Made by a program: the position numbers and the translations under genes
Notes under the pieces: generated by a model
What the model saw: only the letters and a program-made list of their open reading frames with translations
Told to the model about the DNA's origin: nothing
Databases searched by the model: none
Shown: piece after piece, positions 7,565 through 56,403 of the stretch
Layout of the letters: every line of letters begins with the position of its first letter
Numbering within the stretch: position 1 is the stretch's first letter
Assembly: GCA_018660465.1 (NCBI GenBank)
Contig: JABJKH010000007.1
Location: forward strand, 16,031-80,030
DNA from: Rhodospirillaceae bacterium
GTDB taxonomy: Bacteria > Pseudomonadota > Alphaproteobacteria > Rhodospirillales > JABJKH01
Direction: 5' to 3'
DNA: 64,000 nucleotides

Positions 7565-8269
7565 CTACCCCTGAACTTCCTCTACTAAGCCCTCTAATTG
7601 TTCTAAGTCATGAATGATTAGGGAGTTTTTCGTGCGCTCTACAATGCCCTTACGGGCCAAATCATTCATCACCCGGGCCACAGTCTCCCGCGTGGTGCTA
7701 ACCCGGCTCGCGATGTCACCATGCACAGGGATCGGTTTTAAAATAACTTGGTTTTGGATGCCGTCGAACTCGTCACTTGCCTGTGCCAATCGCAATAAAT
7801 CCACATGAACGCGGTTATTGGCACCCAGGGTGCTCAAATCCATAATCCGTTCCGTTGAAAACCGAACAAGGCGGCACAAGTGCTGCATAATAGCCAGAGC
7901 GAGTGCCGGAATTTCTTCCAATAAGGCCAAGAACCTGCTGGAGGGCATAACAACGATCAGGCAATCGGTAAGTGCCATAACACTGGCTGACCGCGGCTCG
8001 CCATCAATCGCCGCCAACTCACCAAACTGTTGGCCATCGGTCACGTCGTCCAGAGTTACTTCGCGCCCGGAAAATGAATAATTCACCACCCGAACCTTCC
8101 CCTTAACCACGAAGAAGATATCCTTGGTCTGGGCGTGACGGTCAAAGATTTGTTCGCCGGCGGCAAATTTTTTGTAGCGGCAATGGGTCTCGACCTCGGC
8201 CAACGCCGCAGGCGGGACGTCTTGCAGCAACTTTATGCCCGTCAGGACCTTCGGCGTATTATCCGGCAC
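7565..8269 (-). CDS. Crp/Fnr-family transcriptional regulator (cNMP-binding domain + C-terminal HTH)
   Basis: The 234-aa protein has a phosphate-binding-cassette-like FGELAAIDGEPRSASVMA and a C-terminal HTH (SRVSTTRETVARVMNDLARKG). It lacks an FNR-type N-terminal Cys cluster. Confidence 0.85.
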   Translation of the reverse strand: MPDNTPKVLTGIKLLQDVPPAALAEVETHCRYKKFAAGEQIFDRHAQTKDIFFVVKGKVRVVNYSFSGREVTLDDVTDGQQFGELAAIDGEPRSASVMALTDCLIVVMPSSRFLALLEEIPALALAIMQHLCRLVRFSTERIMDLSTLGANNRVHVDLLRLAQASDEFDGIQNQVILKPIPVHGDIASRVSTTRETVARVMNDLARKGIVERTKNSLIIHDLEQLEGLVEEVQG

Positions 8270-16295: not shown

Positions 16296-18116
16296 ATGTC
16301 GACTGAGAAAAGCCGAACCTGGAGTTGGGAATTTGATAGCCCGCCCAAAGTTGTGTGGACCGCACTGGCCAACACTCAACGGTTTAACGAAGCCATCGGC
16401 GCACCGACATACAAAGTCGAAGAGCTACCGCAATCGGACGGCAGCGTTATTTCCATCGCGCGGGCGCGAAAAGGGCCATTTGATTTAGAATGGGAAGAAG
16501 CGGTAGTTGACCGAGTCTTCAATCGTTGGTTTCACCAACGCCGGATATTTCTGAAGGGTCCGCTAAAAACGTTAAACTCTTGGCTTAAGATTACCCAAAC
16601 TGAAAAAGGGTGTCGTGCCGAATTTACCATTGCGGCGACCCCATCTGGGATGATGGGCCGACTTATTTTAGCAACTCGATTTTTTTCTGGCCCTGATCGT
16701 GTACTCAATCAACTGGCCGCTAACATGAAATCATTTGCGGACGGCACGGTGGAAACACCCTACGAGGTACCCCCGCCAACCTTAGCCCTTGGCAGCGAAG
16801 CCCGTATCCGCGACCTTAAGGAAGCTATCGACCAATCGCCCTTTTCTCACGGCTTAACGCAACGACTGGCCGACTTCGCATTCAAACGACAAGACGCCGA
16901 TGTGTCACAGATACGGCCCTTGGCGCTGGCAAGGCTGTGGAATGTTCCCGCACGGCACGCGGTCGAAGTATGCCTTCAGGCGGCGAAACAAGGACTCCTA
17001 GGTCTACGCTGGCATCTGTTATGCCCTCACTGCCAAGGCGGAAAAGGAGAATCTGCCTCCCTCGATCAACTGCCCGTAGGCGAACACTGCAACTCCTGCA
17101 ATATAGATTTTGACCGGGAATACTCGGGCAATGTTGAACTGGCGTTTCATCCTGCTGCAGCAATTAGACCCGTCGAGACCGCTGCCTTTTGTACGGCGGG
17201 ACCAATGGTCACACCCCATGTTGTCGTACAGATTTCTCTCAAACCAGGAGAAACAAGAACGGTCACAGCAGAACTGGCTCACGGAAGCTATCGCCTTCGC
17301 ACCGTAGAGCCAGGTCCAAGCCACATCATTGACTGGCATTCAGGCGGTTTTCCGGAAGTCATTGCCAATGTAGATTCTATGGAAGCGGGTGCCCCAGTTG
17401 ATTCCGGAAAAATTACCTTAACCAACCGTACTGGCCGTCGGCTGGCCTTGGTGATAGAGGAACGAGGTTGGGCGCGTGACGCCCTGACGGCAGATAGAGT
17501 GACAACCTACCAAGCCTTCCGTGATCTCTTCTCCCGTGAGGTGCTGAGGCCTGGTGATACCGGAGATATCGATCATGTCACCCTGATGTTTACAGATCTC
17601 AAGGGATCGACCGCGCTTTACAATCGTGTCGGCGATCCAGAAGCTTACGCTCAAGTCAGAGACCATTTTTCCGTTCTTGGCACTGCTGTTCGCGAAAATA
17701 ACGGTGCCGTGGTTAAAACCATTGGCGACGCGATTATGGCTGCATTCGCCAACCCCCTAGATGGTTTGGCGGCGGCGATCCAAATTCAGAATGATATGAA
17801 GGCTCATAATTCGACCACTGAGGGCGAACCTTTGATCATAAAAATTGGTCTAAATACCGGACGATGTATCGCCGTCACGTTAAATGACCGGTTGGATTAC
17901 TATGGTGCCACGGCCAATCTAACGGCCCGCCTGGAAAGTCAAAGCCAAGGGGGGGACATCATTTTGTCGGAGTCGCTCACTCATGATGCGGCGATCTGTG
18001 ATAGACTAACTAAGATCACATTGGAAAAGGGAATGGCCGAATTAAAGGGGTTCGCGGATAGCATCCCGTATTTTAGAGTATTGGCAGACGACATAAATAA
18101 GCTTGTAGACGATTAA
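16296..18116 (+). CDS. Class III adenylate/guanylate cyclase with N-terminal SRPBCC-like and Cys4 zinc-ribbon-like regions
   Basis: The C-terminal cyclase domain shows VTLMFTDLKGSTALY, GDAIMAAF and RLESQ. The middle region has CPHC...CNSC. The N-terminus has an SRPBCC-like pattern. Confidence 0.85.
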   Translation: MSTEKSRTWSWEFDSPPKVVWTALANTQRFNEAIGAPTYKVEELPQSDGSVISIARARKGPFDLEWEEAVVDRVFNRWFHQRRIFLKGPLKTLNSWLKITQTEKGCRAEFTIAATPSGMMGRLILATRFFSGPDRVLNQLAANMKSFADGTVETPYEVPPPTLALGSEARIRDLKEAIDQSPFSHGLTQRLADFAFKRQDADVSQIRPLALARLWNVPARHAVEVCLQAAKQGLLGLRWHLLCPHCQGGKGESASLDQLPVGEHCNSCNIDFDREYSGNVELAFHPAAAIRPVETAAFCTAGPMVTPHVVVQISLKPGETRTVTAELAHGSYRLRTVEPGPSHIIDWHSGGFPEVIANVDSMEAGAPVDSGKITLTNRTGRRLALVIEERGWARDALTADRVTTYQAFRDLFSREVLRPGDTGDIDHVTLMFTDLKGSTALYNRVGDPEAYAQVRDHFSVLGTAVRENNGAVVKTIGDAIMAAFANPLDGLAAAIQIQNDMKAHNSTTEGEPLIIKIGLNTGRCIAVTLNDRLDYYGATANLTARLESQSQGGDIILSESLTHDAAICDRLTKITLEKGMAELKGFADSIPYFRVLADDINKLVDD

Positions 18117-22829: not shown

Positions 22830-24899
22830 ATGGCAGAAGCAGCTCCCGCAGAAGCTGAGGTTCCCGAGGAACCCAAAAAAACAGAGATCCCGGAAACACT
22901 GCCAGGGTCTGGCGGTGGTCCGGCTATTCTGTACGATCGTTTTATCATCAATTCTGACACCACGATTCCAGACTTGGACACCCCGTCGGCGAAGGCGTAC
23001 AGCGTCGAAGACCGGCGCGAGGCGGGCAGCCAACTGTTTGCCCTGATATGTACGCCGGGTCTGCCAATTCGGGATGAGATCATAGATGACCTTAAGGCCG
23101 GTGATATTCCCGGACTGATGAAGCTGGTCGATTGGGGAAAGGTCCATTGGCCGCCTTTGAACCAAACCGCTATGGCGATGATCTATCGCCGCCCGATGGG
23201 TGGAAAGGTCACCAGTACCTACGATGCGGATGGTTTTCGAATTACGGAATATGATATACCGACACAGGTTATAAAACCGCTGGGATCAGCAATCCGAGAA
23301 TTGGGGATCCGAAAGATTACCCATCGGGCCATTCGTCCAAATAATCTATTTTATATGGATGAAGAACGTACCCAAATGGTTTTGGGCGACTGTGCAACGA
23401 CGCCTCCGGGTTTCGACCAGCCCGTAATTTTTGATTCATTGCCAGCAGCCATGGCTTCGCCCGGCGGCCGTGGCCCCGGCGATATAAAAGACGATTTGTT
23501 TTCTCTTGGTATTACCGTCTTGTACTTTTTGCTGGAAGACAATCCAATTGCTGAATTGGAAACAAGCGATCAAGTTATTCAGCGTGCCGAGATTGGGACC
23601 TATCAGGTCCTCCTCAAAAATTATCGCCTTCCGGCTAAAATGACAGAAGTATTGCGGGGATTGCTTTCCGACGAACCTGATGAACGCTGGGGAACCAGTG
23701 AATTAGAAACTTGGATTAACGGCAAACGTCCGGCGGCACTTCCCCGCAAGAGCCTGATCAAGGCAGACGCACCCTTTAAGTTTGAATCGTATGAACTGGT
23801 AGCCCCGCGGGCACTTGCACACGCTCTGGCGAAAAACGTGCCAGAAGCAGCAAAAGCAATCAAAAGCGGCGACCTGGAAATTTGGGCTCGTAGCGATCTG
23901 AAAATAAGTGGCTTGGCAGATTCTATTAAGGAAATTGCCGAAGTCGCGACGATAAACGTAAATAAGGCGGATTCGAAAGACGATTTTGTGGTCACTAAAG
24001 TGAGTCTCATTATGGACCCAACCGGCCCTATTCGTTATCGAGGATTTTCTTTTATGCCTGACGGGTTCGGAGGCGCAATGGCTGTCGAATACCTACGCAC
24101 TCAGGAAAATAAATTCGCTGCTCAAGTTCTATCGCGTAACGTCCTCGGTATTTGGACCGTTGCCCAAGGAGATAACTCGCCAGATACTTTTTCCTATGAT
24201 GCCAACTTTAAGGAGCTACGTAAATTTCAACAAAAAGTCTCTTTAGGCTATGGAATAGAACGGTGCCTCTATGAGGAAAACCGATCCCTTGCTTGCCAAA
24301 GTCCAAATATTGCCCAGGACTACGTAACCGATATTAGAGAAATTCTGACGGCACTAGATCGGGCGGCCAATCGCGCCGATACGACCGGGAAACCTATTGA
24401 CCGGCATGTTGCGGGATTCATCGCCGCCCATTTCGATCAGGAAATTGAACCGCACCTAAATGCACTCGCAAGTCCTGGCGAAGCGTCATCACTCATCGGC
24501 ATGCTCAGCCTGCTAGCGTTAATGCAGTGGAAGCTAGAAGGTGAGCCGGTTTATGGTTTATCGAGTTGGATGGGGGGACTTTTAGGTCCCGCAATCAACA
24601 CCTACTACAATCGGTCTACCCGGCGTGAAATTGAAGGTGAAATTCCCAAGCTGGTGCGCCAAGGCAGCCTGCCCGACCTGTTTGATCTAATCGATAACGC
24701 CGAGCGGCGTAAGGACGATATGAACGGTTTCGAAGAGGCACAAGCCGAATACGCGACCGCAGAGGCCGAAGTTAAGGAACTGACTGAAAACGAAGAAGAG
24801 CGAGCCAACTCGGCAGAATCTTCTGGGCATCATGCGTCAGCTGTTACCTCATTTCTTTTTATGGCATTTATTGTAACTCTTGTTTTTATCTTTGGTTGA
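22830..24899 (+). CDS. Protein-kinase-fold protein lacking the catalytic Asp (putative pseudokinase) with long C-terminal region and TM anchor
   Basis: The catalytic-loop-like sequence is THRAIRPNN, against the canonical HRDxKxxN. LGD stands in place of DFG, and I saw no clear Gly-rich loop. The C-terminal hydrophobic tail is VTSFLFMAFIVTLVFIFG. Confidence 0.6.
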   Translation: MAEAAPAEAEVPEEPKKTEIPETLPGSGGGPAILYDRFIINSDTTIPDLDTPSAKAYSVEDRREAGSQLFALICTPGLPIRDEIIDDLKAGDIPGLMKLVDWGKVHWPPLNQTAMAMIYRRPMGGKVTSTYDADGFRITEYDIPTQVIKPLGSAIRELGIRKITHRAIRPNNLFYMDEERTQMVLGDCATTPPGFDQPVIFDSLPAAMASPGGRGPGDIKDDLFSLGITVLYFLLEDNPIAELETSDQVIQRAEIGTYQVLLKNYRLPAKMTEVLRGLLSDEPDERWGTSELETWINGKRPAALPRKSLIKADAPFKFESYELVAPRALAHALAKNVPEAAKAIKSGDLEIWARSDLKISGLADSIKEIAEVATINVNKADSKDDFVVTKVSLIMDPTGPIRYRGFSFMPDGFGGAMAVEYLRTQENKFAAQVLSRNVLGIWTVAQGDNSPDTFSYDANFKELRKFQQKVSLGYGIERCLYEENRSLACQSPNIAQDYVTDIREILTALDRAANRADTTGKPIDRHVAGFIAAHFDQEIEPHLNALASPGEASSLIGMLSLLALMQWKLEGEPVYGLSSWMGGLLGPAINTYYNRSTRREIEGEIPKLVRQGSLPDLFDLIDNAERRKDDMNGFEEAQAEYATAEAEVKELTENEEERANSAESSGHHASAVTSFLFMAFIVTLVFIFG

Positions 24900-31495: not shown

Positions 31496-33097
31496 TTATT
31501 TTTTTACCAATTTTCCTGCGCAATCAATGCCAGACAGGAGAACTTTTTCATATCTATTTGGGCACGTGGCGGTCACTTTAAAACCTGGAGCCGCCTTCTT
31601 CAAATGCTTGCTCAAGTGGACCCAATGAGTTCCTCGAATATAGACGCAGGGGTAACTCGCGATAATCTTAGCCGCATCCCGCGACCCCTTCCAGTCCCTG
31701 AAATCCATGGTGTTTTGTTCAAACCAAAAATCATTAGCAGGCTTGGTTTGAGCTAGCTTTTCTCCAAATCGGCTACCAGTCCACCAATCACCAAGTGCCA
31801 GGGCAAAGGACTGTGTGCTCGCGGGAAAGACATAGAGTCTTGCACATTGCGAAAAGCGGTTATCGTCAATACGAAGTGCTTCCGCATGTTTAAACTGCTG
31901 TTCTTTATCTAAGCGTTTAACGCTAAAGGGTTGCGCTAAAATCAAGATACAAAGAAGCCCCCGAATAACCAGCCCCGCGCGGGCGCGAAAGACATCACCA
32001 CCAAATTTAAAGCCTGCTACCAAACGCACCAACATGACAATGGTGAGAGCGTTCATCATATACGCTGGAATCATGAAGTTGGCGGTCGGTTGCTTTGCAA
32101 CCAAAAGGACTTGTGCCAATACTGCCAGACAAAGCCCCGCAACGGCCTTCGCATCATTATTCCAGTGCCGTTTCCAAGCTGCCACGGCCAACGCGGTCAG
32201 TCCCAAAACGAAGGGGGCATGCAGGAGCGGCCGACCAAATATTTCGCGGACCGCCTTGGTGTATGCGTCAGGGTCTACAAACCCCACGGCACCACTACCG
32301 TAGGCCCCCGTGCCCGTCGAAATCTTCAGCATCCAATTAAAAAATATGTCCCAGGACCCAAATGCCGGTAACGTGAAAACAACCAGCGCCAGGAACGAGA
32401 TTCCTGCGTAAACCGTGAGTGCCCTAAACGACCCCAACAAAAAGAGTGGTAATAGATAAATTGGCGCGGAGATAACCTTCACCGCGACACCGAACCCGGC
32501 GACGATCCCAAATGCCACCGCATAACGCAGGCGCATCGATTGCAGGGCACCGGAGCGTTGCGCCGACACCATTACCATCATCAGCATCAGCATCGTGATA
32601 ATCACGAACGATTCAGGCCGAACCTGATAGGAATTTTTCAACGTGACCATGGATAGGAATGGCGCCGCCTGAAGGACGAGCGCGAAGACCTTACTCTCAA
32701 ACACCCGATAGGCAACGGCACCTACCAGGACCAAACCAATCGCCGTCACGCAAACCGTCGCCGTGCTGATCAACCGCAAATGTCCTTCTGGATCGGCGAG
32801 CACGATATCTGCAATCGCCTCGCCCCCAGTTAACGGATAGACCGCCTTGAGGACCAAGGCGCCGAAGACCTGGACCGGCGTGCCTGGGTGATACGGGTGC
32901 CCGGGCCAATTCAGATTTACGAGATTCACCGCGTCGTAAAGATAAAAATAAGACGGGTCTAGCAAATACCAAAGCCAGAACGGCCCACCGCCGTGCCGCA
33001 ACCAAAAGACGGACACCAAGAAACAAAGTGGCAGAACCAGCAACATCCCCCACAAGGGGAGGTATTGGCGCTCCAGTGGCGGCAGGTGATTTCTCAT
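31496..33097 (-). CDS. Polytopic membrane protein, ArnT/PMT (GT-C)-like putative glycosyltransferase
   Basis: The protein is about 533 aa with many TM helices and a soluble C-terminal domain. The ATG at 33097 overlaps the TGA of the upstream gene (TGATGA). The function is inferred from architecture and context. Confidence 0.55.
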   Translation of the reverse strand: MRNHLPPLERQYLPLWGMLLVLPLCFLVSVFWLRHGGGPFWLWYLLDPSYFYLYDAVNLVNLNWPGHPYHPGTPVQVFGALVLKAVYPLTGGEAIADIVLADPEGHLRLISTATVCVTAIGLVLVGAVAYRVFESKVFALVLQAAPFLSMVTLKNSYQVRPESFVIITMLMLMMVMVSAQRSGALQSMRLRYAVAFGIVAGFGVAVKVISAPIYLLPLFLLGSFRALTVYAGISFLALVVFTLPAFGSWDIFFNWMLKISTGTGAYGSGAVGFVDPDAYTKAVREIFGRPLLHAPFVLGLTALAVAAWKRHWNNDAKAVAGLCLAVLAQVLLVAKQPTANFMIPAYMMNALTIVMLVRLVAGFKFGGDVFRARAGLVIRGLLCILILAQPFSVKRLDKEQQFKHAEALRIDDNRFSQCARLYVFPASTQSFALALGDWWTGSRFGEKLAQTKPANDFWFEQNTMDFRDWKGSRDAAKIIASYPCVYIRGTHWVHLSKHLKKAAPGFKVTATCPNRYEKVLLSGIDCAGKLVKK

Positions 33098-34077
33098 CAC
33101 CCCATCCGCTCTTGGCATTGCGCCAAGATCCGCGTGACCTCAACACCCTGATCAAGGCTTGCCGTTGAGGTATCACCATTTGAGATGGCGTTGGCAAATT
33201 CCCGAACTGCAACGGTGACCGGCATTTCATTACTAATAGGGATCGCGCGACCTTCACCCTTGGGTTCAGCTACATCAAGTTGGGCGGGGTATTCCATCAG
33301 TTGCCCCGGAACCGCATCATCGTAAGCCAATACTGTATCGTCAAAGAAGACGGCAAAGCGGCGGTGGCGGTCGGTTAAGTTTCCGAAAGTGATATCGGCG
33401 ACAGCGCTTTCTGAGAAAGTCAGGCGGAGATGATGGTTTTCGCCGATGCCGCCCTCTACTTCGCGGCGTTCCAGAACACGTGCCGCGACCGATACCGGCG
33501 TTCTCTCCAGCACCCCCAAGGCAAGCGCCACTTCGTGCGAGCCCCAATCCCACAGCACGGGAGTATGTCTCCGGTATGGCCCATGGTCGCCGACACTTGA
33601 CCACACACCACGCGCCGGTCCCGAGGTTGCAATTCGGTCCTTAATTTCTCGGTACGCAGGCCGGAAAAGATGAGTATGTTCGACAAGCACCAAACCATTG
33701 TTGGCAATGGCGCATTCGCGAATTTCGTCTGCCTCATTAACATCGAGCGTCATCGGCTTTTCAACCAGAACAGCCTTGCCCGCATCAAGTGCCGCACAGG
33801 CTATCTCAGCATGGTGTTGAGGAGGCGTTGCGATGATAACGCCAGAAATTATTTTATCGGCGATCAATTCGCGCCAATCTGTTGAGATTTTACAGTCGGA
33901 ATCAACCAGCGACTTACTGTCTGAATTTCCACTGGCCAAATGAGCCAGTTGCACGCCCTCTAAACCGGCAATTGTTTTGATATAAATCTTGCCCCACGGC
34001 CCCGCACCAATCAGACCTAAGTTGATGGGGCTGCCAGCCACGGTTATTGCTCGCCGATATAGATTCCATCCGCCCAC
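33097..34077 (-). CDS. Gfo/Idh/MocA-family NAD(P)-dependent oxidoreductase
   Basis: The N-terminal Rossmann motif is INLGLIGAGPWG, followed by a family-typical EKP motif (VLVEKPM). An alternative GTG start lies at 34041. Confidence 0.8.
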   Translation of the reverse strand: MGGWNLYRRAITVAGSPINLGLIGAGPWGKIYIKTIAGLEGVQLAHLASGNSDSKSLVDSDCKISTDWRELIADKIISGVIIATPPQHHAEIACAALDAGKAVLVEKPMTLDVNEADEIRECAIANNGLVLVEHTHLFRPAYREIKDRIATSGPARGVWSSVGDHGPYRRHTPVLWDWGSHEVALALGVLERTPVSVAARVLERREVEGGIGENHHLRLTFSESAVADITFGNLTDRHRRFAVFFDDTVLAYDDAVPGQLMEYPAQLDVAEPKGEGRAIPISNEMPVTVAVREFANAISNGDTSTASLDQGVEVTRILAQCQERMG

Positions 34078-37607: not shown

Positions 37608-38300
37608 TTAGAGAGGTAGGACGTTCACGCCCAAAACAGTGTTATGACCATATAGAAGCCCGATATACAGCAAGACTGTCAGTAATGTTTGCCAAAGGGG
37701 AATCTCTCGGTTCTCGATACGCGTCCTCCCCTTAAGGATTGCACCTAAGGGAAAAAATGAGGTCTCGGCTTCATAGGCCCGCCAAGCATCGCCTAAGTTT
37801 TGCCTTCGGCGAAGGTCAATGTGATACGCACCAGCAAGGGCCAAGACCGTCATCGTCCCAAACAAAATAAGCTTAGCAACTTCTCCATGCGCCAGAAGAT
37901 GAGCGATTCCCCAAAACGCGATGCCCCACATCACCGGATGGCGGGTGATTTTCAGGACCCCTTTTGGCGAAGGTACGACCGCCTTATCCTCCGTATTAAT
38001 CGCACCTGGATTTTGTGTGGTGTAGCCGCCGACAATAAAAAAACATGCGAATAACATCAATGTCAGCGAGGCATGCTTAAATCCGGTCATTGGAATCCAA
38101 AGCACAACATCTGGCGCATCCTGATAGGCCCACAACATCCATGCAAAAGACATCAGTGAGAAAATAGAATAGCCAATCATGAATGGTGCACGCCCCATTG
38201 CCGAAACGAGTCGGGGTCTGATAGAGCCCGACGACATCACGAAGTGACTGCCAACAAAGAGTATGCTCGCGAGAGCAAGGTGCCAAAGTGATCCGGTCAT
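37608..38300 (-). CDS. NnrU-family membrane protein
   Basis: The 230-aa membrane protein has ITRHPVMWGIAFWGIAHLL, which is typical of NnrU. Confidence 0.72.
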   Translation of the reverse strand: MTGSLWHLALASILFVGSHFVMSSGSIRPRLVSAMGRAPFMIGYSIFSLMSFAWMLWAYQDAPDVVLWIPMTGFKHASLTLMLFACFFIVGGYTTQNPGAINTEDKAVVPSPKGVLKITRHPVMWGIAFWGIAHLLAHGEVAKLILFGTMTVLALAGAYHIDLRRRQNLGDAWRAYEAETSFFPLGAILKGRTRIENREIPLWQTLLTVLLYIGLLYGHNTVLGVNVLPL

Positions 38301-39198: not shown

Positions 39199-39361
39199 CT
39201 CAGCAATATCCTAATAGAGAAGCGTGATCACTCCTCAAATGAAAGCCATCATAAATTTGAATTTAATTGGGCGATTGGTATAGGGGGAAAGGACGGCGAT
39301 GTCTATGAGAGTTCTAGAAGCGGGAAGACCCAACAGGGCAGGGCGGGAAGCGCGTTCCCGC

Positions 39362-39736
39362 CTAAGCACCTGCCTTTTTCTTCTTCTTTTTGGTCTCGAC
39401 AACTGGCTCTTTCTCAGAAATGGAGCGTACTTCTGTGCGTAACTCCGTCGTCGATTTGCTCAGGTAATCGACTTCGCCATCAAGGGTATCGAGTTTACGA
39501 GTTTGCGAAGACTGGATGACCTTTGAACTTTTGGCTGAATTTGCCAGACGATCCTTCAGAGTTTGAATTTCTGAATCTTGGTTCGCCAAGGCCGTCGCGA
39601 GTTCAAGCTGTAAGCTCTCCACCGTTTCTGTCATCGTCCGCCGGACCTTTTTTACAGATTCGGACGCTGTGATCATCACGAAGATAGAAACCCCTAATGC
39701 CAGCAATGCAATCAAACTTGATAATCCGCTATCCAT
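39362..39736 (-). CDS. Hypothetical N-terminally anchored coiled-coil protein with poly-Lys tail
   Basis: The 124-aa protein has a TM helix (LIALLALGVSIFVMI), a heptad-like helical region and a C-terminal KKKKKK. Confidence 0.5.
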   Translation of the reverse strand: MDSGLSSLIALLALGVSIFVMITASESVKKVRRTMTETVESLQLELATALANQDSEIQTLKDRLANSAKSSKVIQSSQTRKLDTLDGEVDYLSKSTTELRTEVRSISEKEPVVETKKKKKKAGA

Positions 39737-39806
39737 AATTCCCTCCTCTTCATTTCGCTATCGTATCGAATATACAGTCTAAAATACATTTTTTTTCAAT
39801 TCCCAC

Positions 39807-39822
39807 AGTGACGCAGATCACA
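39807..39822. promoter_or_regulatory. CRP-type palindrome AGTGA-N6-TCACA in divergent intergenic region
   Basis: The sequence agtgacgcagatcaca matches the TGTGA-N6-TCACA consensus at 9 of 10 core positions. It lies about 70 bp upstream of the 39736 start and about 275 bp upstream of the 40097 start. Confidence 0.3.
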
Positions 39823-40096
39823 AGAGGATTTTAATATTAACCATACAGGTGAAAAATGAAAGTTTGTCTGCGTCGTCTCCTTCTCCTATCCCGTCAGGTA
39901 ATTAGAATGGGCTCACAAAGATCGCGCGCTCATCACGCGAATTTGAAGCTAGATGATTAGCAGTAAAACAAATTCTCCTCCATCATTTCCAACATGCATT
40001 TGGGGTCACTAGCGAATCTTTTAGGTGTCACGCATACGGAGCAGCCCCAAGATTTTGCAATCGTTTTTAAACCAGACAACGTCGGGAGGCGAACTC

Positions 40097-41401
40097 GTGA
40101 AGTCATTCAAACTAAATCTCATGTCAACAACGCTTGTGCCAGCCATAGTCGGAGCGGGCCTGGCAGTTGGTGGAAGCATGGCCCTTTCCGGCGCCAGCCA
40201 AGCCGCTGGCAATGGTGAACTGCTGCCGGTGGCGAAAGCCCGGACGGGTGCTGTGCAACTTGCTGCTTGTGGCCCGTGTGGCGGAAAGCGGCGTGGCTGT
40301 GGCGGATGCAATCCTTGCGGCGCAAAAAAGCGCGGTTGCGGTGCGTGTAACCCGTGTAGAGCCAAAAAACGAGGATGTGGTGCCTGCAATCCATGCGGTG
40401 CTAAGGCTCGGTGCGGTGGATGCAACCCGTGCGCGGCGAAAAAGCGTGCCTGCAACCCTTGCAACCCCTGTGCGGCAAAAAACCCCTGCGGTGGCTGCAA
40501 TCCGTGTAACCCCTGTGCAGGTGGTGGCGGTGGATCCGTCTCGACTAAATGTTTCATTCCACGTTTGGTGAAAGCGGCTGCGTGTAATCCGTACGCGGCT
40601 AAAAAGCGTGGCTGTGGCGCGTGCAACCCGTGCGGCGCAAAAAAGCGCGGCTGTAATCCGTGCAATCCCTGTGCAGCCACGAAAAAAGGCTGCGGCGCAT
40701 GTAACCCTTGCGCGGCGAAAAAGCGTGGCTGCGGTGCGTGCAATCCATGTGCGGCCAAGAAGCGCGCTTGCAATCCTTGCAACCCGTGCGCAGCGAAGAA
40801 CCCGTGTGCGGCGAAAAACCCGTGTGCGGCGAAAAATCCGTGTGGCGGAGCCAACCCTTGTAATCCCTGTGGTGGCAACCCCTGTGGCGGCAATACCCCG
40901 TTTGTTGAAATTAAGGACAGCGAAGCTACGGCAGCCTACAACTGTCTGAAAGGTGAGATGGCCGCCGTCTATGCCAAGGCCGGCGTAAAAACCGTAAAAG
41001 GCTATCAAAATTGGCCCCTGTTCAATAAGGCGCCTTATATTGCTGATACCCATGGCGGGCGTTTGGTCAATAACTACTCCAATAAAGTCGGCGCGAAAGC
41101 GTATGGCCGATACGAGAAAATTGGCAAAGCACCTGTCGGGACGGTTTTGATGAAAGACAGCTTCGTGGCCAAGCCAGACGGAAAACTGGCGATTGGTCCC
41201 GGCTTCATCATGGAGAAGATGAAGGCGAGCTTCAGCAAGGCCACAATGAACTGGAAGTATTCCATGATCATGCCGAACGGGAGCGTCTTTGGTGTTACCG
41301 GCGGCAAGAACTCTAAAGGCATGACGTTCTGTCACGAATGTCATGGTGCCGCAGAAGACGAAGACGCTCTTCGGTTCTTACCAGAGGAGTATAGAAAGTA
41401 A
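40097..41401 (+). CDS. Exported Cys-rich CNPC-repeat protein fused to a cytochrome P460-family haem domain
   Basis: GGGAGG sits 7 nt upstream of the GTG at 40097, and an alternative ATG lies at 40121. The signal peptide ends ALSGASQA. About 210 residues follow of C-G-A-C-N-P-C-x-A-K-K-R-G type repeats. The C-terminal domain shows HGGRLVNNY, GTVLMKDSF and NWKYSM. A single CHECH haem c site lies at 41330..41344. Confidence 0.8.
   Translation: MKSFKLNLMSTTLVPAIVGAGLAVGGSMALSGASQAAGNGELLPVAKARTGAVQLAACGPCGGKRRGCGGCNPCGAKKRGCGACNPCRAKKRGCGACNPCGAKARCGGCNPCAAKKRACNPCNPCAAKNPCGGCNPCNPCAGGGGGSVSTKCFIPRLVKAAACNPYAAKKRGCGACNPCGAKKRGCNPCNPCAATKKGCGACNPCAAKKRGCGACNPCAAKKRACNPCNPCAAKNPCAAKNPCAAKNPCGGANPCNPCGGNPCGGNTPFVEIKDSEATAAYNCLKGEMAAVYAKAGVKTVKGYQNWPLFNKAPYIADTHGGRLVNNYSNKVGAKAYGRYEKIGKAPVGTVLMKDSFVAKPDGKLAIGPGFIMEKMKASFSKATMNWKYSMIMPNGSVFGVTGGKNSKGMTFCHECHGAAEDEDALRFLPEEYRK
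40262..40893 (+). repeat. In-frame coding tandem-repeat array (about 39-bp units encoding CGACNPCxAKKRG, plus 15-18-bp AAKNPC / CNPCNPC variants) in two super-blocks
   Basis: Read directly from the sequence. The repeated protein units are encoded by differing synonymous codons, for example tgcaatccttgc, tgtaacccgtgt, tgcaatccatgc and tgcaacccgtgc. Confidence 0.9.
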
Positions 41402-41418
41402 ACTTGCACTTTTCGTAG

Positions 41419-41491
41419 GTGACCCGGGGAAGGGAAATAATAGCTCCCCCTGCTATTAGGCCTATTAGGCAAAATGCTCTTCCCCGGTCAC
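41419..41491 (+). other. Nested imperfect inverted repeat between the P460-fusion gene and the cupredoxin gene
   Basis: The outer arms are gtgacccggggaag and cttccccggtcac. An inner hairpin is aatagc...gctatt, and there is a tandem ctattaggc x2. No T-run follows, so this is not a canonical terminator. Confidence 0.35.
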
Positions 41492-41532
41492 AAACGTGAA
41501 ATCCACGCTGATAGGAAAAAGGATTACTAAAC

Positions 41533-41856
41533 ATGAAAAATTTTGGAGCGAGTTTCGTCATACTTGGGGCGGCACTCGTCCTCAGTTCAGGTGCCATGGC
41601 CAAAGAAATCACCATTTCTCAAAAGGGTAAAAAATTTTCCCAACGAAATATTACCATCAGTAGCGGCGACGTTCTTGATCTCGGAAACGACGACCGAGTC
41701 TCCCACAATGTTCTCATTCGAGGCCCGGGCACACGTCTTAATAGCGGCATTCAAAAACCCGGCAAGCCATACAAATATACCTTCGACAAAAACGGTCTTT
41801 TCAAGGTTCGCTGCGGCATTCATCCAAAAATGAAATTAGATGTCACCGTAAAATAG
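41533..41856 (+). CDS. Small periplasmic cupredoxin (amicyanin/pseudoazurin-like type 1 copper protein)
   Basis: The signal peptide is ILGAALVLSSGAMA. The candidate T1Cu ligand set is His in VSHNV plus C-x2-H-x2-M in RCGIHPKM, the same spacing as amicyanin CTPHPFM. Confidence 0.72.
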   Translation: MKNFGASFVILGAALVLSSGAMAKEITISQKGKKFSQRNITISSGDVLDLGNDDRVSHNVLIRGPGTRLNSGIQKPGKPYKYTFDKNGLFKVRCGIHPKMKLDVTVK

Positions 41857-41894
41857 CGTGTCTTATTGCGTTAACCCTTCGATGAGGGCCCCAC

Positions 41895-43550
41895 ATGTCA
41901 ATTAGAATAAAATTATTGATCGGATTCTTGCTCTGCACCGCTGTGACGGCTGCTCTTGGCGGGTACGCTGTCGTGACAATTTCGTCCCTCGGCAATCTAA
42001 CGATGGAAGTCTATGACAAGCCGCTTATGGCAATAAATTATGCCCGGGCTGCTGAGACTAATTTTGCATCCTTAGATAGCCTGCTCATTCGCTTCTCCTC
42101 GGGTGATCAGGGTGAGAAGCTTACGGACGGCATTAAAGAGCAAACAGAAAATTTATCCGAGAATTTAGAAGTTGCTTCTGAGCGGGCGATGAATGAAGAA
42201 AGCGAAATCCTCATCAATGATATTCAAAACCTCGTCACCCAATGGCAAGCATCCGTAGGGGACATTATGGCGGGCAAGAAACCTTCAGCCTCCATAGATC
42301 TTTCTAAGGTTTCATCTACAATTTTAGGGAAGCTGGGGGAACTTGTTGAGATCACCGCGGCTGCAGGATTTGAATTCCGCTTAAAGGCTGAAGAAGAAGT
42401 TGCCAAACGGGGAAGGATCACACTAATCGTTGTCGCTGCGGGTATTGCATTGGGTATCTTGATCGCCCTTTATTTAGCCTTCGTTATCACAGGCCCCTTA
42501 AAACGTGCTGTAAAAACAGCCGAAGCGATCGCCGATGGAAAGCTCGATAATGAGTTCTTGAAAGTCGGCAGGGACGAGACAGGGAAATTACTACGTTCCC
42601 TCGACTCCATGCAGCAGGCTATCTCTATCCGAATTGAAAAGGAAAATGAATTACAAGAACGCGACCGACGCCGCCAAGAGGAACAACAAGAAGTTCTGCA
42701 AAAACAGATTGGCACGCTAGAACAAAAACTTGAAACCGTCATCGAAGGGTCGGTCTCATCCGTTGTCGATAACTCGACCACTTTAAAGGAATTATCAGAT
42801 CAAATGTTGAATGCGGCATCCAGATTGCAGGAACGCGCCGGCATGGCGACCCAAGCGTCTGAAGATACGTCTTCAAACGTCGCCATGGTTACTAACGGAA
42901 CTGAACGGTTAAACGTTTCGTTTGTCGATGTTTCATCGAAGGTTAGAACCTCTACCGAGATTGCCGAGAGCGCGGCCCAGCAATCGAGCGATGCGAATAA
43001 AACAATGGACCGACTCGCTGAGACTGCTGACCAAATCGGTAGCGTCGCACAGTTGATCAAAGGGATCGCCGAACAAACCAACTTGCTGGCCCTGAACGCA
43101 ACGATTGAGGCAGCCCGCGCCGGGGATGCCGGAAAAGGATTTGCCGTCGTTGCGACGGAAGTTAAGAACTTGGCGATTGAAACGGCCAAGGCCACAGAAG
43201 AAATAGAAACCCAGGTTCAGGCCATGCAGTCGGTGACCGCCTCTGCCGTCACCGAGATGCAAAATGTCACAAATACAATTAAACAAATTCGTGATATTGC
43301 CAGTGGTGTTGCGGATTCAGTTGCCGAGCAAACAGCAGAAACAGAACTGATGGTGGAGAATGCAAACAAAGCGGAAGAAGCGAGTAACAAGCTGTCATTA
43401 TCGGTTTCGGATGTTACCACCGATGTGTCCTCTTCAGAAGGAATGGCGACCCGAGTAAATCAAGTTTCTCACTCTGTACTTGAAGAAATATCATCCCTGC
43501 AGCATCGCCTTTCAGAAACTCTGAATGAGGCAAAATCGCAGGTCAACTAA
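41895..43550 (+). CDS. Methyl-accepting chemotaxis protein (4-helix-bundle-type periplasmic sensor, HAMP, signalling domain)
   Basis: The conserved hairpin tip is [31 protein letters not shown]. Two TM helices flank a periplasmic region of about 160 aa. Confidence 0.92.
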
Positions 43551-43553
43551 GAC

Positions 43554-44240
43554 TTACACGTGTAAGGGCTCTGGGCCACCATCACCTAAGAGCTTTCGCG
43601 TCAGATCCATGCTGAAAATATGTTTCATCGCAATATCCATGGTCGGGTTGCGCTTTAAAAGGCTGCGGAGTTCTTCCTTTGGCCAAACAACACACCGGCA
43701 CGGTTGGGCTGCCTGAACTGTTGCGGTCGCGTTACCACCTTGCAGAAATGATATTTCGCCGATCATTGCGCCGTCCCGGGCACGCGCGACTTCCTTGCCA
43801 TCAATTACAATTTTTACTTCGCCGTTATAAAGCAATTTCAAAGATTCAAATTCCTCCCCTTCTTTCGCGATGAAGTTATCTTCGGGGATTTCCTTCCAAC
43901 TGGCGAGCCGCATGAGTTTCATGAATTCAACAGGGGAAAATTCTTGGAAGGTGGTTTCGTAAAGTTCCTTTTCGTCTTCGTTGAAAGAAACACCGCGTTG
44001 TTCCGAATAAAGCTGAACAATCCGTCCGCCATTAATAAACATGAACAACGACACCCAGACAATCGCCAGCCAGAGAGGCCCACCGGGTAAATAATAATTG
44101 TAAAATAATCCTATAAACCCTGAGGCAACCGAAATCGCCCGAAGCATGATCATATCCTTTACGGCATAGGAAACTGCGATCAGGGCAAACGACAGATGAC
44201 CGAAGACATCAACAAGTGTAAAAGTTAGCATTGCGGACAT
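43554..44240 (-). CDS. 3-TM membrane protein with C-terminal cyclic-nucleotide-binding-fold domain
   Basis: The N-terminal ~85 aa are hydrophobic (three helices). A CAP-type barrel follows with IGEISFLQGGNATATVQA, where the cassette Arg is replaced by Asn. Confidence 0.7.
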   Translation of the reverse strand: MSAMLTFTLVDVFGHLSFALIAVSYAVKDMIMLRAISVASGFIGLFYNYYLPGGPLWLAIVWVSLFMFINGGRIVQLYSEQRGVSFNEDEKELYETTFQEFSPVEFMKLMRLASWKEIPEDNFIAKEGEEFESLKLLYNGEVKIVIDGKEVARARDGAMIGEISFLQGGNATATVQAAQPCRCVVWPKEELRSLLKRNPTMDIAMKHIFSMDLTRKLLGDGGPEPLHV

Positions 44241-44368
44241 TCTCCAGGTGTTAAATTATAGTCACCTAAGTTATGGTGATCCTTGGTATTATCTGGCTTC
44301 TAAACATACACGTAAATCATTGTAACTGTAACGGCAATTGGGATGCCTGTTGGCATTTAGAGGGACAA

Positions 44369-45289
44369 ATGGACGTCACACGAAAAGAATTTCTCGGATT
44401 AACCGCAGCCTCTGGGGCCGCACTGATATTGGGCGCTCAGGTAATGGCAGCACCCGCCCCAGTCGCGCAGCGCAAAATTCCTAAAAGCGGTGAAATGCTT
44501 CCCGTAATCGGACTTGGAACAGCTCGAACCTTCGACGTCGAGGGAACGCCCGAAGAACTCGCCCCCCGTAAGGAAGTTTTACGCCGACTTTTTGAGGGAG
44601 GCGGCAGCGTCGTCGATTCGGCCCCCTCTTATGGCGAAGCAGAAAGGATCGTCGGCGAACTTCTGTCTTCGTTAGGCGCGCGGGACAAAGCCTTCATTGC
44701 CACCAAGATCACCACCCGTGGTGACCGTGATGAAGGTATTCAGTCGATGAAGGATTCAGCCACACGGCTAAAAACCGATCACTTCGAACTCATGCAGGTT
44801 CACAACCTTAAAAATTTAAAGACCCATCTGAAGTCGATTCGTGAATTACGAGATTCTGAAAAGACCAAATACGTCGGCGTGACACATTTCAGACCTGGTG
44901 CCTATGACCGCCTGGAAAAGGTTCTAAAATCTGAACCTCTTGATTTCGTTCAGTTGAAATATTCCTTGAGCACCCGTGAGGCGGAGGACCGCCTGCTGCC
45001 GTTGGCCCGGGACAAGGGCCTGGCTGTTTTAATAAACCGGCCCTATGACCTCGGTCGGCTATTTCGAGCCGTTAAAGGAAAATCGCTCCCGCCTTGGGCC
45101 GCTGAATTTGGTGCAGAAAGCTGGGGGCAGTTCTTTCTAAAGTTTATCCTCGGACATGATGCTGTAACCTGCGTTATCCCGGGCACCCGCAAGCCAAAGC
45201 ACATGACTGATAATCTAGGTGCCGGACGTGGTCCATTGCCAAATTCAAAGCAACGCCAACAAATGATTCGTTTTTTAGAAGGGTTGTAA
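44369..45289 (+). CDS. Aldo/keto reductase with Tat-like signal peptide
   Basis: The N-terminus is MDVTRKEFLGLTAASGAALILGAQVMAAPA. The AKR motifs are GLGTARTF and VDSAPSYGEAERIVG. The ATG is at 44369 and the tracked ORF begins at 44273. Confidence 0.83.
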   Translation: MDVTRKEFLGLTAASGAALILGAQVMAAPAPVAQRKIPKSGEMLPVIGLGTARTFDVEGTPEELAPRKEVLRRLFEGGGSVVDSAPSYGEAERIVGELLSSLGARDKAFIATKITTRGDRDEGIQSMKDSATRLKTDHFELMQVHNLKNLKTHLKSIRELRDSEKTKYVGVTHFRPGAYDRLEKVLKSEPLDFVQLKYSLSTREAEDRLLPLARDKGLAVLINRPYDLGRLFRAVKGKSLPPWAAEFGAESWGQFFLKFILGHDAVTCVIPGTRKPKHMTDNLGAGRGPLPNSKQRQQMIRFLEGL

Positions 45290-45373: not shown

Positions 45374-46012
45374 ATGTTTGAGTCTGGCATTTTTCATTGG
45401 ATCAACATCATTGGATACATCGCGGGGGTGGTCAGTATCTGGGCCATGTACCGCAAGACTATGATCCCCCTCCGGCTAGGGGCTATTTGCAGTAATATTG
45501 GACTGCTCATTTTTGGGCTGTTATCGGAAAGCTACCCAACGGTATTTCTACACGCCATCTTGCTACCGTTGAATACAGTACGTTTGTTTCAGATGATCCA
45601 ACTGATCGACGACATGAAAAAAGCGTCCGGCACGACCCGAAATGCCATGGCGCCGTTACTTCCCTTTATGACCCTTGAAAAAATGAAAGCGGGCACCGTC
45701 TTATTTGCGAAAGGCGACATTTCAGACAAAATGTATTTTATTCATTCGGGCACCGTCAGCCTGGAAGAATTCGAAGTGGAACAAAGCACGGGCGCAGTCT
45801 TTGGTGAAATTGCCGTTTTCACATCTGATAACAGCCGCACCTGCACCGCCATCTGCATGAACGACTGTGAATTCTACACGTTGGATACCGACACCATGCT
45901 GCAGCTCTATTACCAGAATCCAGACTTCGGTATGTATCTGGTCCGCCTGATGGTTGATCGCCTGATGCAAAATTGGAAAGAAGCGGATAGCCGCGCCAAT
46001 GCGCTAACTTAA
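45374..46012 (+). CDS. 3-TM membrane protein with C-terminal cyclic-nucleotide-binding domain (paralogue of 43554..44240)
   Basis: It has the same architecture. The cassette is FGEIAVFTSDNSRTCTAI, with the Arg retained. Confidence 0.7.
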   Translation: MFESGIFHWINIIGYIAGVVSIWAMYRKTMIPLRLGAICSNIGLLIFGLLSESYPTVFLHAILLPLNTVRLFQMIQLIDDMKKASGTTRNAMAPLLPFMTLEKMKAGTVLFAKGDISDKMYFIHSGTVSLEEFEVEQSTGAVFGEIAVFTSDNSRTCTAICMNDCEFYTLDTDTMLQLYYQNPDFGMYLVRLMVDRLMQNWKEADSRANALT

Positions 46013-55041: not shown

Positions 55042-56403
55042 CTAATCTGAATTCTGATCGCCTGTTCCGACTTGGCCGACATAGCTCGAGTCATGCACAT
55101 AAAGGTTGCTCATTGCGTCGGCGACAAAGGCTTCGGTAATGATCGGGGCTATGCCCTCGTACTTACAAGCGGCGATAACCTGATCGACGATGAATTTGGG
55201 TTGATAGCAGGCGAGTGGCTTTTTCACCGTTTCTTGTAGCTCGCGTACCACATAGTCGAAAATTTCGTCGGTCAGTTGTAGACCTTGTTTGGCGGCGACG
55301 GCTGTAAATATTTGGCGAAAGGCGTCCTTGGATGGCTCATAGGTTTCCAACTTGTAGGGGATGCGGCGCAAGAACGCCGGGTCCATAAGATCTTCAGGCG
55401 CCAAATTGGTGGAAAAGATCAAAAGCTCATCAAAGGGAATGGTAAATGCTTTTCCCGAATGTAGGGTTAGGTTATCGATACGCGTTTGCAGCGGCACAAT
55501 CCAGCGATTAAGAATTTCCTCGGGGCTAACTCTTTGGCGACCGAAATCATCGATGATAAACGTGCCATTGAGCGCCTTCATATGCAGGGGTGCCTCATAG
55601 AATTTGGCAAATTCATTGAATTTTAGGTCCAACATTTCCATCGTTAACTCGCCGCCTGTAACAACGACTGGGCGCTGACAGGCGACCCAGCGTTGGTCGC
55701 TTCTCTCGCGCCGCAACGATGGTCGTGAAGATTCCACTTTTTCAGCCTGTCCCACGGCCTTATGAACCGCAGGATCAAACACTTTGATAATATTGCCTTC
55801 GATCTCAATACAATGCGGGATGTAGACGACGCTCTCGAAGATAGCAGCAACCTTCTCCGCCACCGTCGTCTTGCCATTACCGGCGGGTCCGTAAATAAGA
55901 ATGCTGTGGCCGGAGTTGATCGCAGGCCCCAAACGTTTGACGAAATTTTCAGGCACAATGATATCTGCGAACGCTTCTGCAATGTTCTCTTTGGATACCC
56001 ATTCGCCGGCAATTTTTTGTGCAAGAACACGGGCCTGAAAATCTTCTAACGTGACAGGCGCTGGGCCAAAATACTGATTTTGATTACAAGCATCCAGAGC
56101 GACTTGCTGACCCTCTCGAGTCAATTGATAGCGGATAGAAGAGAGGGCACCAACACCCGTTGATCCAGCGGCATGGATCAATTTGCGATCAAGCATCTCT
56201 TGGGTTACGCCGTTGACGATGTTGGTCGACAACTTAATTGCCTGGGTAATTTGGCTGGCTTCCTCAAGATTCTCCAAGTACATGCCCTTGGCGATTAAAT
56301 TAATGATGAATGCTAAATCGAGGCCTGTAGCATTAATGTCCGCAGGGCGGGGAGGGGCTTCAACGGCATTTTTAGGTGCTGTATTTTGAGGTGCTTGTTC
56401 CAT
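55042..56403 (-). CDS. AAA+-type ATPase with N-terminal helical/wHTH-like region
   Basis: Walker A is GPAGNGKT and Walker B-like is FIIDDFGRQ. The arginine-finger-like region is DPAFLRRIPY. Confidence 0.7.
   Translation of the reverse strand: MEQAPQNTAPKNAVEAPPRPADINATGLDLAFIINLIAKGMYLENLEEASQITQAIKLSTNIVNGVTQEMLDRKLIHAAGSTGVGALSSIRYQLTREGQQVALDACNQNQYFGPAPVTLEDFQARVLAQKIAGEWVSKENIAEAFADIIVPENFVKRLGPAINSGHSILIYGPAGNGKTTVAEKVAAIFESVVYIPHCIEIEGNIIKVFDPAVHKAVGQAEKVESSRPSLRRERSDQRWVACQRPVVVTGGELTMEMLDLKFNEFAKFYEAPLHMKALNGTFIIDDFGRQRVSPEEILNRWIVPLQTRIDNLTLHSGKAFTIPFDELLIFSTNLAPEDLMDPAFLRRIPYKLETYEPSKDAFRQIFTAVAAKQGLQLTDEIFDYVVRELQETVKKPLACYQPKFIVDQVIAACKYEGIAPIITEAFVADAMSNLYVHDSSYVGQVGTGDQNSD

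Follow-up and report, generated by a model that had tools for sequence, protein, structure and literature searches.

In a 64-kb stretch of the genome of a Rhodospirillaceae bacterium, which we call the window and whose coordinates are used for all positions below, three consecutive genes at 39737-43550 encode a predicted secreted haem protein that joins Cys-rich repeats to a cytochrome P460 domain (gene 1), a small predicted type-1 copper cupredoxin (gene 2) and a methyl-accepting chemotaxis protein (MCP; gene 3). Our analysis led us to a reading to which we give an even chance: the three genes work together as a single cassette, in which the MCP reads the redox couple and which is a version, headed by P460, of a widespread periplasmic haem redox protein-cupredoxin-transducer cassette. 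The haem slot of this cassette is interchangeable, being filled mostly by a MauG/CCP-like di-haem enzyme, by a repeat-P460 protein here and in three other lineages, and in a few loci by a monohaem protein of about 480 amino acids, and the cassette has, judging from sequence comparison, an MCP sensor family of its own.

The evidence for the cassette comes chiefly from the cupredoxin. A metagenome scan with a cupredoxin alignment returned at least 552 relatives, the best 80 of which were combined with six loci from a context look-up, giving 86; the sample is diverse, with 93 cupredoxins falling into 67 groups when clustered at 90% identity and into 31 when clustered at 70%. Both Denitrobaculum tricleocarpae and several marine contigs, the latter with unrelated flanks, have homologues with 45-54% identity to the window cupredoxin, and these lie between a CCP_MauG di-haem enzyme and an MCP. 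Where at least 900 bp of the respective flank was available, 54 of 58 loci had a gene for a MauG/CCP-like di-haem enzyme directly upstream of the cupredoxin, and 39 of 54 had an MCP gene directly downstream; these 39 MCPs comprise 21 of the window type, which have no cytochrome b561 domain, and 18 with an N-terminal b561 domain. Nine more of the 54 loci have a b561 protein directly downstream, which in one case is a histidine kinase, and a transducer of any kind takes this place in 48. Since an MCP was found within 8 kb in only 3 of the 80 P460 loci described below, its occurrence next to the cupredoxin in 39 of 54 loci indicates an adjacency beyond chance. The preliminary description of this locus, made from the sequence alone, had staked its module on the adjacency being conserved in related genomes; for the cupredoxin and the MCP it is conserved, and the notion of a module specific to P460 has to be given up, the first slot being normally that of a MauG/CCP-like enzyme.

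The same arrangement can be recognised in an existing annotation, that of the Skermanella plasmid pTT6-4, which lists a cytochrome c peroxidase, a plastocyanin/azurin-family protein and an MCP, and on an Indioceanicola plasmid the haem enzyme-cupredoxin pair is followed by NapGH quinol dehydrogenase genes. In three loci the cupredoxin and the MCP are preceded not by the di-haem enzyme but by the protein of about 480 amino acids. It matched no model in Pfam or NCBIfam; it is reminiscent of Cyc2-type fused cytochrome-porins and may be one, but we do not assign it as such. The motif set of the cassette, on one strand a secreted haem protein, a cupredoxin with C[GA][IL]HP[KR]M[KR] and a transducer of the shared sensor family, fits the window. 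As an observation in its own right, in many soil metagenome loci the protein directly after the cupredoxin has a quinol-linked cytochrome b561 membrane domain (PF01292) fused to either an MCP signalling domain or a histidine kinase.

Gene 3 gave Pfam matches to MCPsignal (106.2 bits), HAMP (33.8 bits) and 4HB_MCP_1 (28.8 bits, cut-off 27) and has hydrophobic segments at about residues 7-29 and 175-197, which identifies its predicted product as a standard MCP of the four-helix-bundle (4HB) class with two transmembrane (TM) segments. MCPs that adjoin related cupredoxins have sensors homologous to its own (residues 1-190; E values from 1e-9 to 5e-33), and among the 80 P460 loci this sensor matches only that of locus L039. 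Conserved residues of this sensor family are Y40, D41, M45, R97, W117, E152, G158 and R162.

Gene 2 matches PF00127 (Copper-bind) at 24.8 bits (cut-off 21.2), has a signal peptide that we read from the sequence as ending at about Ala23, and carries an HNV motif together with CGIHPKM (C-x2-H-x2-M). The ligands His58, Cys94, His97 and Met100 were invariant across relatives in two alignments, and C..H..M was present in 86 of 86 cupredoxin relatives. The structural model (pLDDT 88) is all-beta with a pLDDT of about 97 over its core, and its best structure matches are the Nitrosopumilus cupredoxin 5fc9 and amicyanins (TM 0.71, rmsd 1.6-1.8 A). Alignments and model agree that gene 2 encodes a type-1 copper cupredoxin with a complete predicted copper site. 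Its earlier name, amicyanin-like, is apt for the fold and for the C-x2-H-x2-M loop, but identity as an amicyanin is ruled out by a score of 21.9 bits against the amicyanin equivalog TIGR02657 (cut-off 110.2) and by the lack of a mau context, as no methylamine dehydrogenase (MADH) genes were found among the window open reading frames (ORFs) scanned against Pfam.

Gene 1 matches PF16694 (Cytochrome_P460) at 33.5 bits (cut-off 27) over residues 325-448 of the ORF that begins at 40025, and no NCBIfam model matches it. Ahead of this domain, residues 58-270 are made up of CNPC-type Cys repeats encoded by imperfect tandem DNA repeats, for which TRF gave periods of 18, 39, 78 and 117. An AlphaFold model of the P460 domain built from 15 homologues reached a pLDDT of 87, and all 11 PDB matches obtained with Foldseek at E <= 1e-3 were cytochromes P460 or c'-beta; the fold is that of the N. 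europaea (2je2/2je3) and M. capsulatus (6hiu) P460 proteins and of the c'-beta structures 6hih, 7s5o and 7ead (E 6e-7 to 1e-4, TM 0.46-0.58 normalised to the query). At the sequence level the domain is too divergent for a single-sequence search of the PDB, which gave only chance matches, and a profile search yielded a very distant match (E 0.17), a weak alignment to 7s5o and 7ead. The CHECH motif occupies residues 412-416, and C412, C415 and H416 were invariant in 20 sequences. In the weak alignment (E 0.17), the family-invariant Lys353 (LMKDSF) falls on seqres Met59 of 7s5o, which we equated with Met79 by assuming a signal-peptide offset of 20 residues, and on a Phe of 7ead. A 2025 review (PMC11928373) describes Met79 of the Nitrosomonas c'-beta-Met protein (7s5o) and Phe61 of the Thermus protein (7ead) as standing in for the Lys that cross-links the haem, which is Lys70 in NeP460 and Lys78 in McP460. 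Since Lys353 lies opposite Met79 and Phe61, the gene 1 product is predicted to be a true Lys-cross-linked P460. It thus has in common with cytochromes P460 the C-terminal CxxCH and a Lys at the cross-link position, while unlike known P460 and c'-beta proteins it has a Cys-rich repeat of about 210 residues ahead of the domain, and its family is hosted by heterotrophic marine Alphaproteobacteria whereas known P460s come from nitrifiers or methanotrophs.

A scan of one genome per species returned at least 590 relatives of the P460 domain, and the best 80 loci, of about 16 kb each, were analysed; all 80 are alphaproteobacterial and include Sneathiella, Aestuariispira and many marine metagenome-assembled genomes. 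When 1.84 billion representative proteins were searched with the P460 domain, 484 clusters were obtained at E <= 1e-3. Between 6 and 57 NPC motifs precede the P460 domain in 77 of the 80 loci, so the Cys-repeat/P460 fusion is a conserved family and not a local oddity. Its commonest neighbour is an FGE-sulfatase-like gene (45/80); a YeeE-type sulfur transporter lies nearby in 13 loci and a class I cytochrome c in 17, mostly just downstream, a position that fits a small electron carrier in the place of the cupredoxin. The FGE-sulfatase-like neighbour (PF03781, 144 bits), which is absent from the window, is transcribed divergently from the repeat-P460 gene (for example L023 5819-6784) and may modify or load the CNPC repeats; C-N-P-C resembles the C-x-P-x-R target motif of formylglycine-generating enzymes. 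Two further companions were noted: a repeat-less P460 paralogue of about 240 residues in 7 of the 80 loci, directly adjacent to the repeat-P460 gene in most, and, upstream of P460 in 16 of the 80 (for example L042 4554-5141, minus strand), a secreted protein of about 160-195 residues with no Pfam match, which ends in GDYLYSCPLNPTPDYRLIVTGQ and has a cupredoxin-like look without the copper ligand set.

The P460-headed order is found outside the window as well. Locus L039 has a repeat-P460, a cupredoxin and an MCP with flanking genes unlike those of the window, L180-182, found through homologues of the L039 cupredoxin, have a P460, a cupredoxin and an MCP, and L176-179 have a repeat-P460 with a cupredoxin, the protein being present on 23 contigs. 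In a neighbour-joining tree of about 85 columns, built without bootstrap support, the window cupredoxin groups with CCP-linked ones (54% identity to that of L087), and the cupredoxins of L039, L180 and L176 form a separate clade with 31-47% identity to it. The window P460 domain is no closer to cupredoxin-linked P460s than to P460s without a cupredoxin. As P460-linked cupredoxins fall into two clades, the linkage appears to have arisen more than once, which suggests two independent recruitments of P460.

Close relatives show the locus in decay. Four assemblies (L081-L084) have about 84% nucleotide identity to the window and share its synteny, with glycosyltransferase, NnrU and EamA genes on one side and cNMP-binding, M48 and DUF898 genes on the other. 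In L083 the counterpart of 39467-40729 is deleted, which removes the promoter region, the signal peptide, most of the repeats and the 5' part of a divergent ORF; the P460 reading frame has a GAG to TAA stop, all that is left of the cupredoxin is about 25 codons at its 3' end, and the MCP is absent, with a TPR gene on the other strand. In L173 and L174 there is an apparent frameshift in the P460 gene (possibly an assembly error in the repeats), the cupredoxin is deleted and the MCP survives as two fragments, and L175 has kept an intact 3' end of P460, the cupredoxin and the 5' end of the MCP. Separate lesions in all three genes with intact flanks are as expected from relaxed selection on one functional unit. 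Two neighbours were ruled out as further members, NnrU (37608-38300) by being intact in L083, where the module has decayed, and the divergent ORF (39362-39736, minus strand) by having no homologue in related loci; the latter would encode 124 residues with a TM helix at the N terminus, followed by a coiled coil and, at the C terminus, a KKKKKKAGA tail.

In the ORF listing the three genes follow one another on the plus strand at 40025..41401, 41533..41856 and 41895..43550. Gene 1 likely starts inside its ORF at GTG 40097, since a ribosome-binding site, GGGAGG (40085-40090), lies 7 nt 5' of this codon and the product then opens with a 36-residue signal peptide, MKSFKLNLMSTTLVPAIVGAGLAVGGSMALSGASQA, ending in ASQA. 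With this start, the distance to the divergent ORF is exactly 360 bp, and the spacers measure 131 bp (41402-41532) between the P460 and cupredoxin genes and 38 bp (41857-41894) between the cupredoxin and MCP genes. The preliminary description had reported the shared strand and all three distances, which are exact by these coordinates, and its gene identities (a Cys-repeat/P460 fusion, a 107-residue cupredoxin and a chemoreceptor with a four-helix-bundle sensor) were all right by Pfam. Neither spacer contains a predicted sigma-70-like promoter or intrinsic terminator, the scan totals being at the level of shuffled sequence, and an Rfam search of 39200-44400 gave only a chance snoRNA match (E 0.95) and no riboswitch or known small RNA in the spacers. 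No FNR/NnrR-type box (TTGAT-N4-ATCAA) was found upstream of the P460, cupredoxin or MCP gene, so there is no sign of NO-responsive regulation at the three genes; over the whole window this motif occurs, with up to two mismatches, 53 times against 36 expected, a count that none of 100 shuffles reached. The RNA of the 131-bp spacer folds at -42.8 kcal/mol (z -3.6), and none of 200 shuffles was equally stable. Its hairpin has a 13-bp outer stem with internal sub-hairpins and no U-tract downstream, was not scored as an intrinsic terminator, and is kept in the relatives L083 and L173 even with the cupredoxin deleted. It may be a processing site, a stabiliser or an attenuator; a REP or MITE element was ruled out by its single copy in the window.

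If the three genes do work as one cassette, the cupredoxin would exchange electrons with the haem protein as its redox partner, accepting them on reaction of NO or hydroxylamine with the P460 haem, whose potential is low, and the periplasmic four-helix bundle of the MCP would read the state of the couple, in the simplest case by having unequal affinity for the oxidised and the reduced cupredoxin. The MCP would then signal to CheA/CheY and the cell would swim along gradients of the haem protein's substrate, in either direction. The cue in the window would be whatever the P460 haem reacts with, and family precedent (PMC11928373) points to NO or hydroxylamine; a table in the same review gives measured P460 haem potentials of about -290 to -430 mV. 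Of the cues named in the preliminary description, an N-oxide is therefore possible in the window but need not hold for the cassette in general, and a metal (Cu, Cd) has found no specific support.

Several points weigh against this reading. Gene order cannot show that the cupredoxin contacts the MCP, many of the loci come from metagenome assemblies, and the loss of contiguous genes can reflect regional decay and not shared function. The window MCP has no haem or flavin cofactor motif and its sensor has no conserved Cys or His. The redox-cassette model leaves the function of the CNPC repeats unexplained. As to the chemistry of the haem, the distal carboxylate for hydroxylamine oxidation is Glu96 in NeP460 and Asp102 in McP460 according to PMC11928373; in the weak alignment (E 0.17), Ser378 of gene 1 falls on the distal position, Ala109 of 7s5o, where the family consensus is Gly and not Glu or Asp. 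Unlike catalytic P460s, gene 1 thus shows no carboxylate at the aligned position and on this evidence resembles the non-catalytic P460 of Nitrosomonas sp. AL212, as far as so weak an alignment can tell; an invariant Glu373 (MEKM), five residues before Ser378, could reach the haem pocket. Loci L176-179 carry the P460-cupredoxin pair without an MCP, and the stable spacer hairpin could separate P460 transcription from that of the cupredoxin and MCP. Finally, searches with phmmer and with an HMM from the 86 cupredoxins found a cupredoxin in only 1 of the 80 species-level P460 loci (L039), from which it follows that most repeat-P460 proteins work without one; the P460-cupredoxin-MCP adjacency proposed in the preliminary description does recur, in L039 and L180-182, but from the P460 side it is rare.

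This rarity is also what would be expected if two units merely lay side by side, a stand-alone P460 protein with its own promoter that binds or detoxifies NO or hydroxylamine, and a cupredoxin-MCP pair, normally served by a MauG/CCP-like enzyme, that landed next to it. We regard such an origin as rather unlikely, though it would account for the typical neighbours that P460 has of its own (the FGE-sulfatase-like protein and cytochrome c), for the longer, hairpin-bearing spacer after P460 compared with the 38 bp between cupredoxin and MCP, and for the window cupredoxin being closest to CCP-linked ones. It is harder to reconcile with a P460-cupredoxin adjacency in at least four lineages and two cupredoxin clades, with P460 holding the exact slot, strand and order of the haem enzyme elsewhere, and with damage to all three genes in L083 and L173 between intact flanks; moreover, the window ORFs scanned against Pfam included no MauG/CCP-like gene.

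Another arrangement would dispense with protein-to-protein signalling altogether. In a co-regulated set for defence and escape, the MCP would bind NO, hydroxylamine, peroxide or a product directly, and the haem enzyme and cupredoxin would only remove the molecule. Four-helix-bundle MCP sensors of the Tar/Tsr type commonly bind small ligands directly, the present sensor has conserved polar residues (Y40, D41, R97, E152 and R162), and gene clustering alone cannot separate this explanation from the redox-cassette reading. However, one sensor family accompanies MauG/CCP-like enzymes, P460 and the monohaem protein of about 480 residues, and since these haem enzymes differ in substrate, a shared ligand is less likely than a shared cupredoxin; in addition, the transducer has a cytochrome b561 domain in 27 of 54 loci, pointing to electron flow and not ligand binding as the signal. 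On balance we hold direct ligand sensing to be unlikely. It is very improbable, in our view, that the genes form a copper or soft-metal module, in which the CNPC repeats would sequester Cu(I) or Cd in the manner of a periplasmic metallothionein, cupredoxin loading would report copper and the MCP would steer along metal gradients. The mature N-terminal region of gene 1 is indeed dense in paired Cys, its relatives having 6-57 NPC motifs, the cupredoxin is a copper protein, and the commonest P460 neighbour is FGE-sulfatase-like, a copper-dependent enzyme family, but the cassette is mainly conserved with MauG/CCP-like enzymes that have no Cys repeats, the type-1 copper site is complete and invariant and is one for electron transfer and not for trafficking, and the window ORFs that were scanned against Pfam yielded no cop, cus or cue genes.

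Known systems share parts of the cassette. In Paracoccus, a di-haem cytochrome c peroxidase has pseudoazurin, a cupredoxin, as electron donor, and such CCP-cupredoxin systems, like the cassette, pair a periplasmic haem enzyme with a type-1 copper one-electron partner. Beside this likeness, the haem enzyme-cupredoxin pair is followed by NapGH in one plasmid locus and by cytochrome b561 in many loci; the described CCP systems have no signalling protein, whereas the cassette has one, and the window has P460 in place of CCP. With the amicyanin/MauG pair of mau clusters, gene 2 shares a small cupredoxin with a C-x2-H-x2-M loop and an amicyanin-like fold, and the cassette in general an upstream MauG-like enzyme, which scores 359-371 bits against TIGR03791, below the cut-off of 444. 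The cassette differs from mau clusters further in having no MADH subunit genes nearby and an MCP after the cupredoxin, and the first gene of the window is P460 and not MauG-like. Redox- and energy-taxis receptors such as Aer, with its FAD, and Geobacter GSU0582 and GSU0935, with their haem-c PAS sensors (PMC3460858), resemble the cassette in that chemoreceptor output is apparently tied to a redox cofactor. Unlike in these receptors, the cofactors of the window would be on separate secreted proteins, beside an MCP sensor without a haem or flavin motif; the b561-MCP fusions of soil loci are closer to the cofactor-bearing receptors than the window MCP is. Chemoreceptors can also depend on binding proteins, Tar on the maltose-binding protein and Trg on the ribose- and galactose-binding proteins, and the proposed indirect sensing through a periplasmic partner that docks on a four-helix bundle would be common to them and the window. 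There the partner is a solute-binding protein, whereas here it would be a redox protein read by its oxidation state, and its gene, unlike those of Tar and Trg partners, adjoins the receptor gene.

Table 1. Features of the P460-cupredoxin-MCP locus (window coordinates) and of related loci (coordinates of the respective locus)
Feature	Position	Strand	Basis or remark
Divergent intergenic region, presumed promoter region	39737..40096	.	360 bp
Cys-repeat/P460 haem protein, 434 aa	40097..41401	+	Pfam PF16694, model, Foldseek
Signal peptide of P460 gene	40097-40204	+	sequence
CNPC-type Cys-rich repeats	about 40268-40906	+	tandem repeats (TRF)
P460 domain	40907-41398	+	Pfam PF16694, model, Foldseek
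Lys353	41153-41155	+	alignment with haem cross-link position
CHECH (CxxCH)	41330-41344	+	haem c attachment motif
Long imperfect hairpin in 131-bp spacer	41419..41491	+	RNA fold
Predicted periplasmic type-1 copper cupredoxin, 107 aa	41533..41856	+	Pfam PF00127, ligands, model
Cupredoxin ligands His58, Cys94, His97, Met100	41704, 41812, 41821, 41830	+	invariant in alignments
MCP, 551 aa: TM1, periplasmic four-helix-bundle sensor of ~150 aa, TM2, HAMP, MCP signalling domain	41895..43550	+	Pfam
Monohaem protein of ~480 aa	L125 235-1680; L139 2-1339; L140 3484-4908		one N-terminal CxxCH
b561-transducer fusions	L093 5296-7608; L092 319-3009; 25 other loci among L091-L170		
Repeat-less P460 paralogue	L020 8499-9224; L021 6625-7350; also L026, L042, L059, L067, L078		

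Elsewhere in the window a few further features were recorded. An aldo/keto reductase (44273-45289) has a Tat-like signal (MDVTRKEFLGLTAASGAALILGAQVMA) from an internal ATG and is probably periplasmic; its gene is absent from L083, where 44395-45283 has no counterpart. Two small membrane cNMP-binding proteins, POPDC-like and YgjV-like, flank the locus (43554-44240, minus strand, and 45374-46012, plus strand), a CRP-family regulator and a class III nucleotide cyclase are encoded at 7565-8269 (minus strand) and 16296-18116 (plus strand), and this local density of cNMP signalling parts is unusual. Four ORFs of 453-689 codons had no Pfam match at E <= 1e-5: 11294-13186 (minus), 22830-24899 (plus), 31496-33118 (minus) and 55042-56403 (minus).

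Each of the three proteins belongs to a known superfamily. The earlier remark that this is not a described system agrees with our full-text search of the searchable literature, which returned no paper on the P460-cupredoxin-MCP combination or on the cassette, and no description of b561-chemoreceptor fusions or of Cys-repeat P460 proteins. A bolder proposal, which we find possible but would sooner doubt, is that an unrecognised class of chemoreceptors and related transducers monitors whether a blue copper protein dedicated to it is oxidised or reduced, this protein being wired to periplasmic or outer-membrane haem enzymes that can replace one another (MauG/CCP-like, P460 or the monohaem protein of about 480 residues), which would result in substrate-specific redox taxis. 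If it is true, the cue in the window would be NO or hydroxylamine, for instance from marine ammonia oxidisers, the cue in soil would be peroxide, and the b561-MCP fusions would be electron-conducting receptors. Two groups of fusions also emerge from the analysis: a large Cys-repeat/P460 family, for which at least 590 genomic relatives were found, and the cytochrome b561-MCP fusions. Little is understood of chemotaxis to reactive oxygen and nitrogen species; to our knowledge, known redox-taxis receptors carry a cofactor of their own, and P460-family proteins have no assigned role in heterotrophic marine Alphaproteobacteria. The cassette, conserved in hundreds of loci from soil and sea, offers a concrete, testable route from a periplasmic redox reaction to motility, and its P460-headed version would tie that route to NO and hydroxylamine in heterotrophic marine Alphaproteobacteria.

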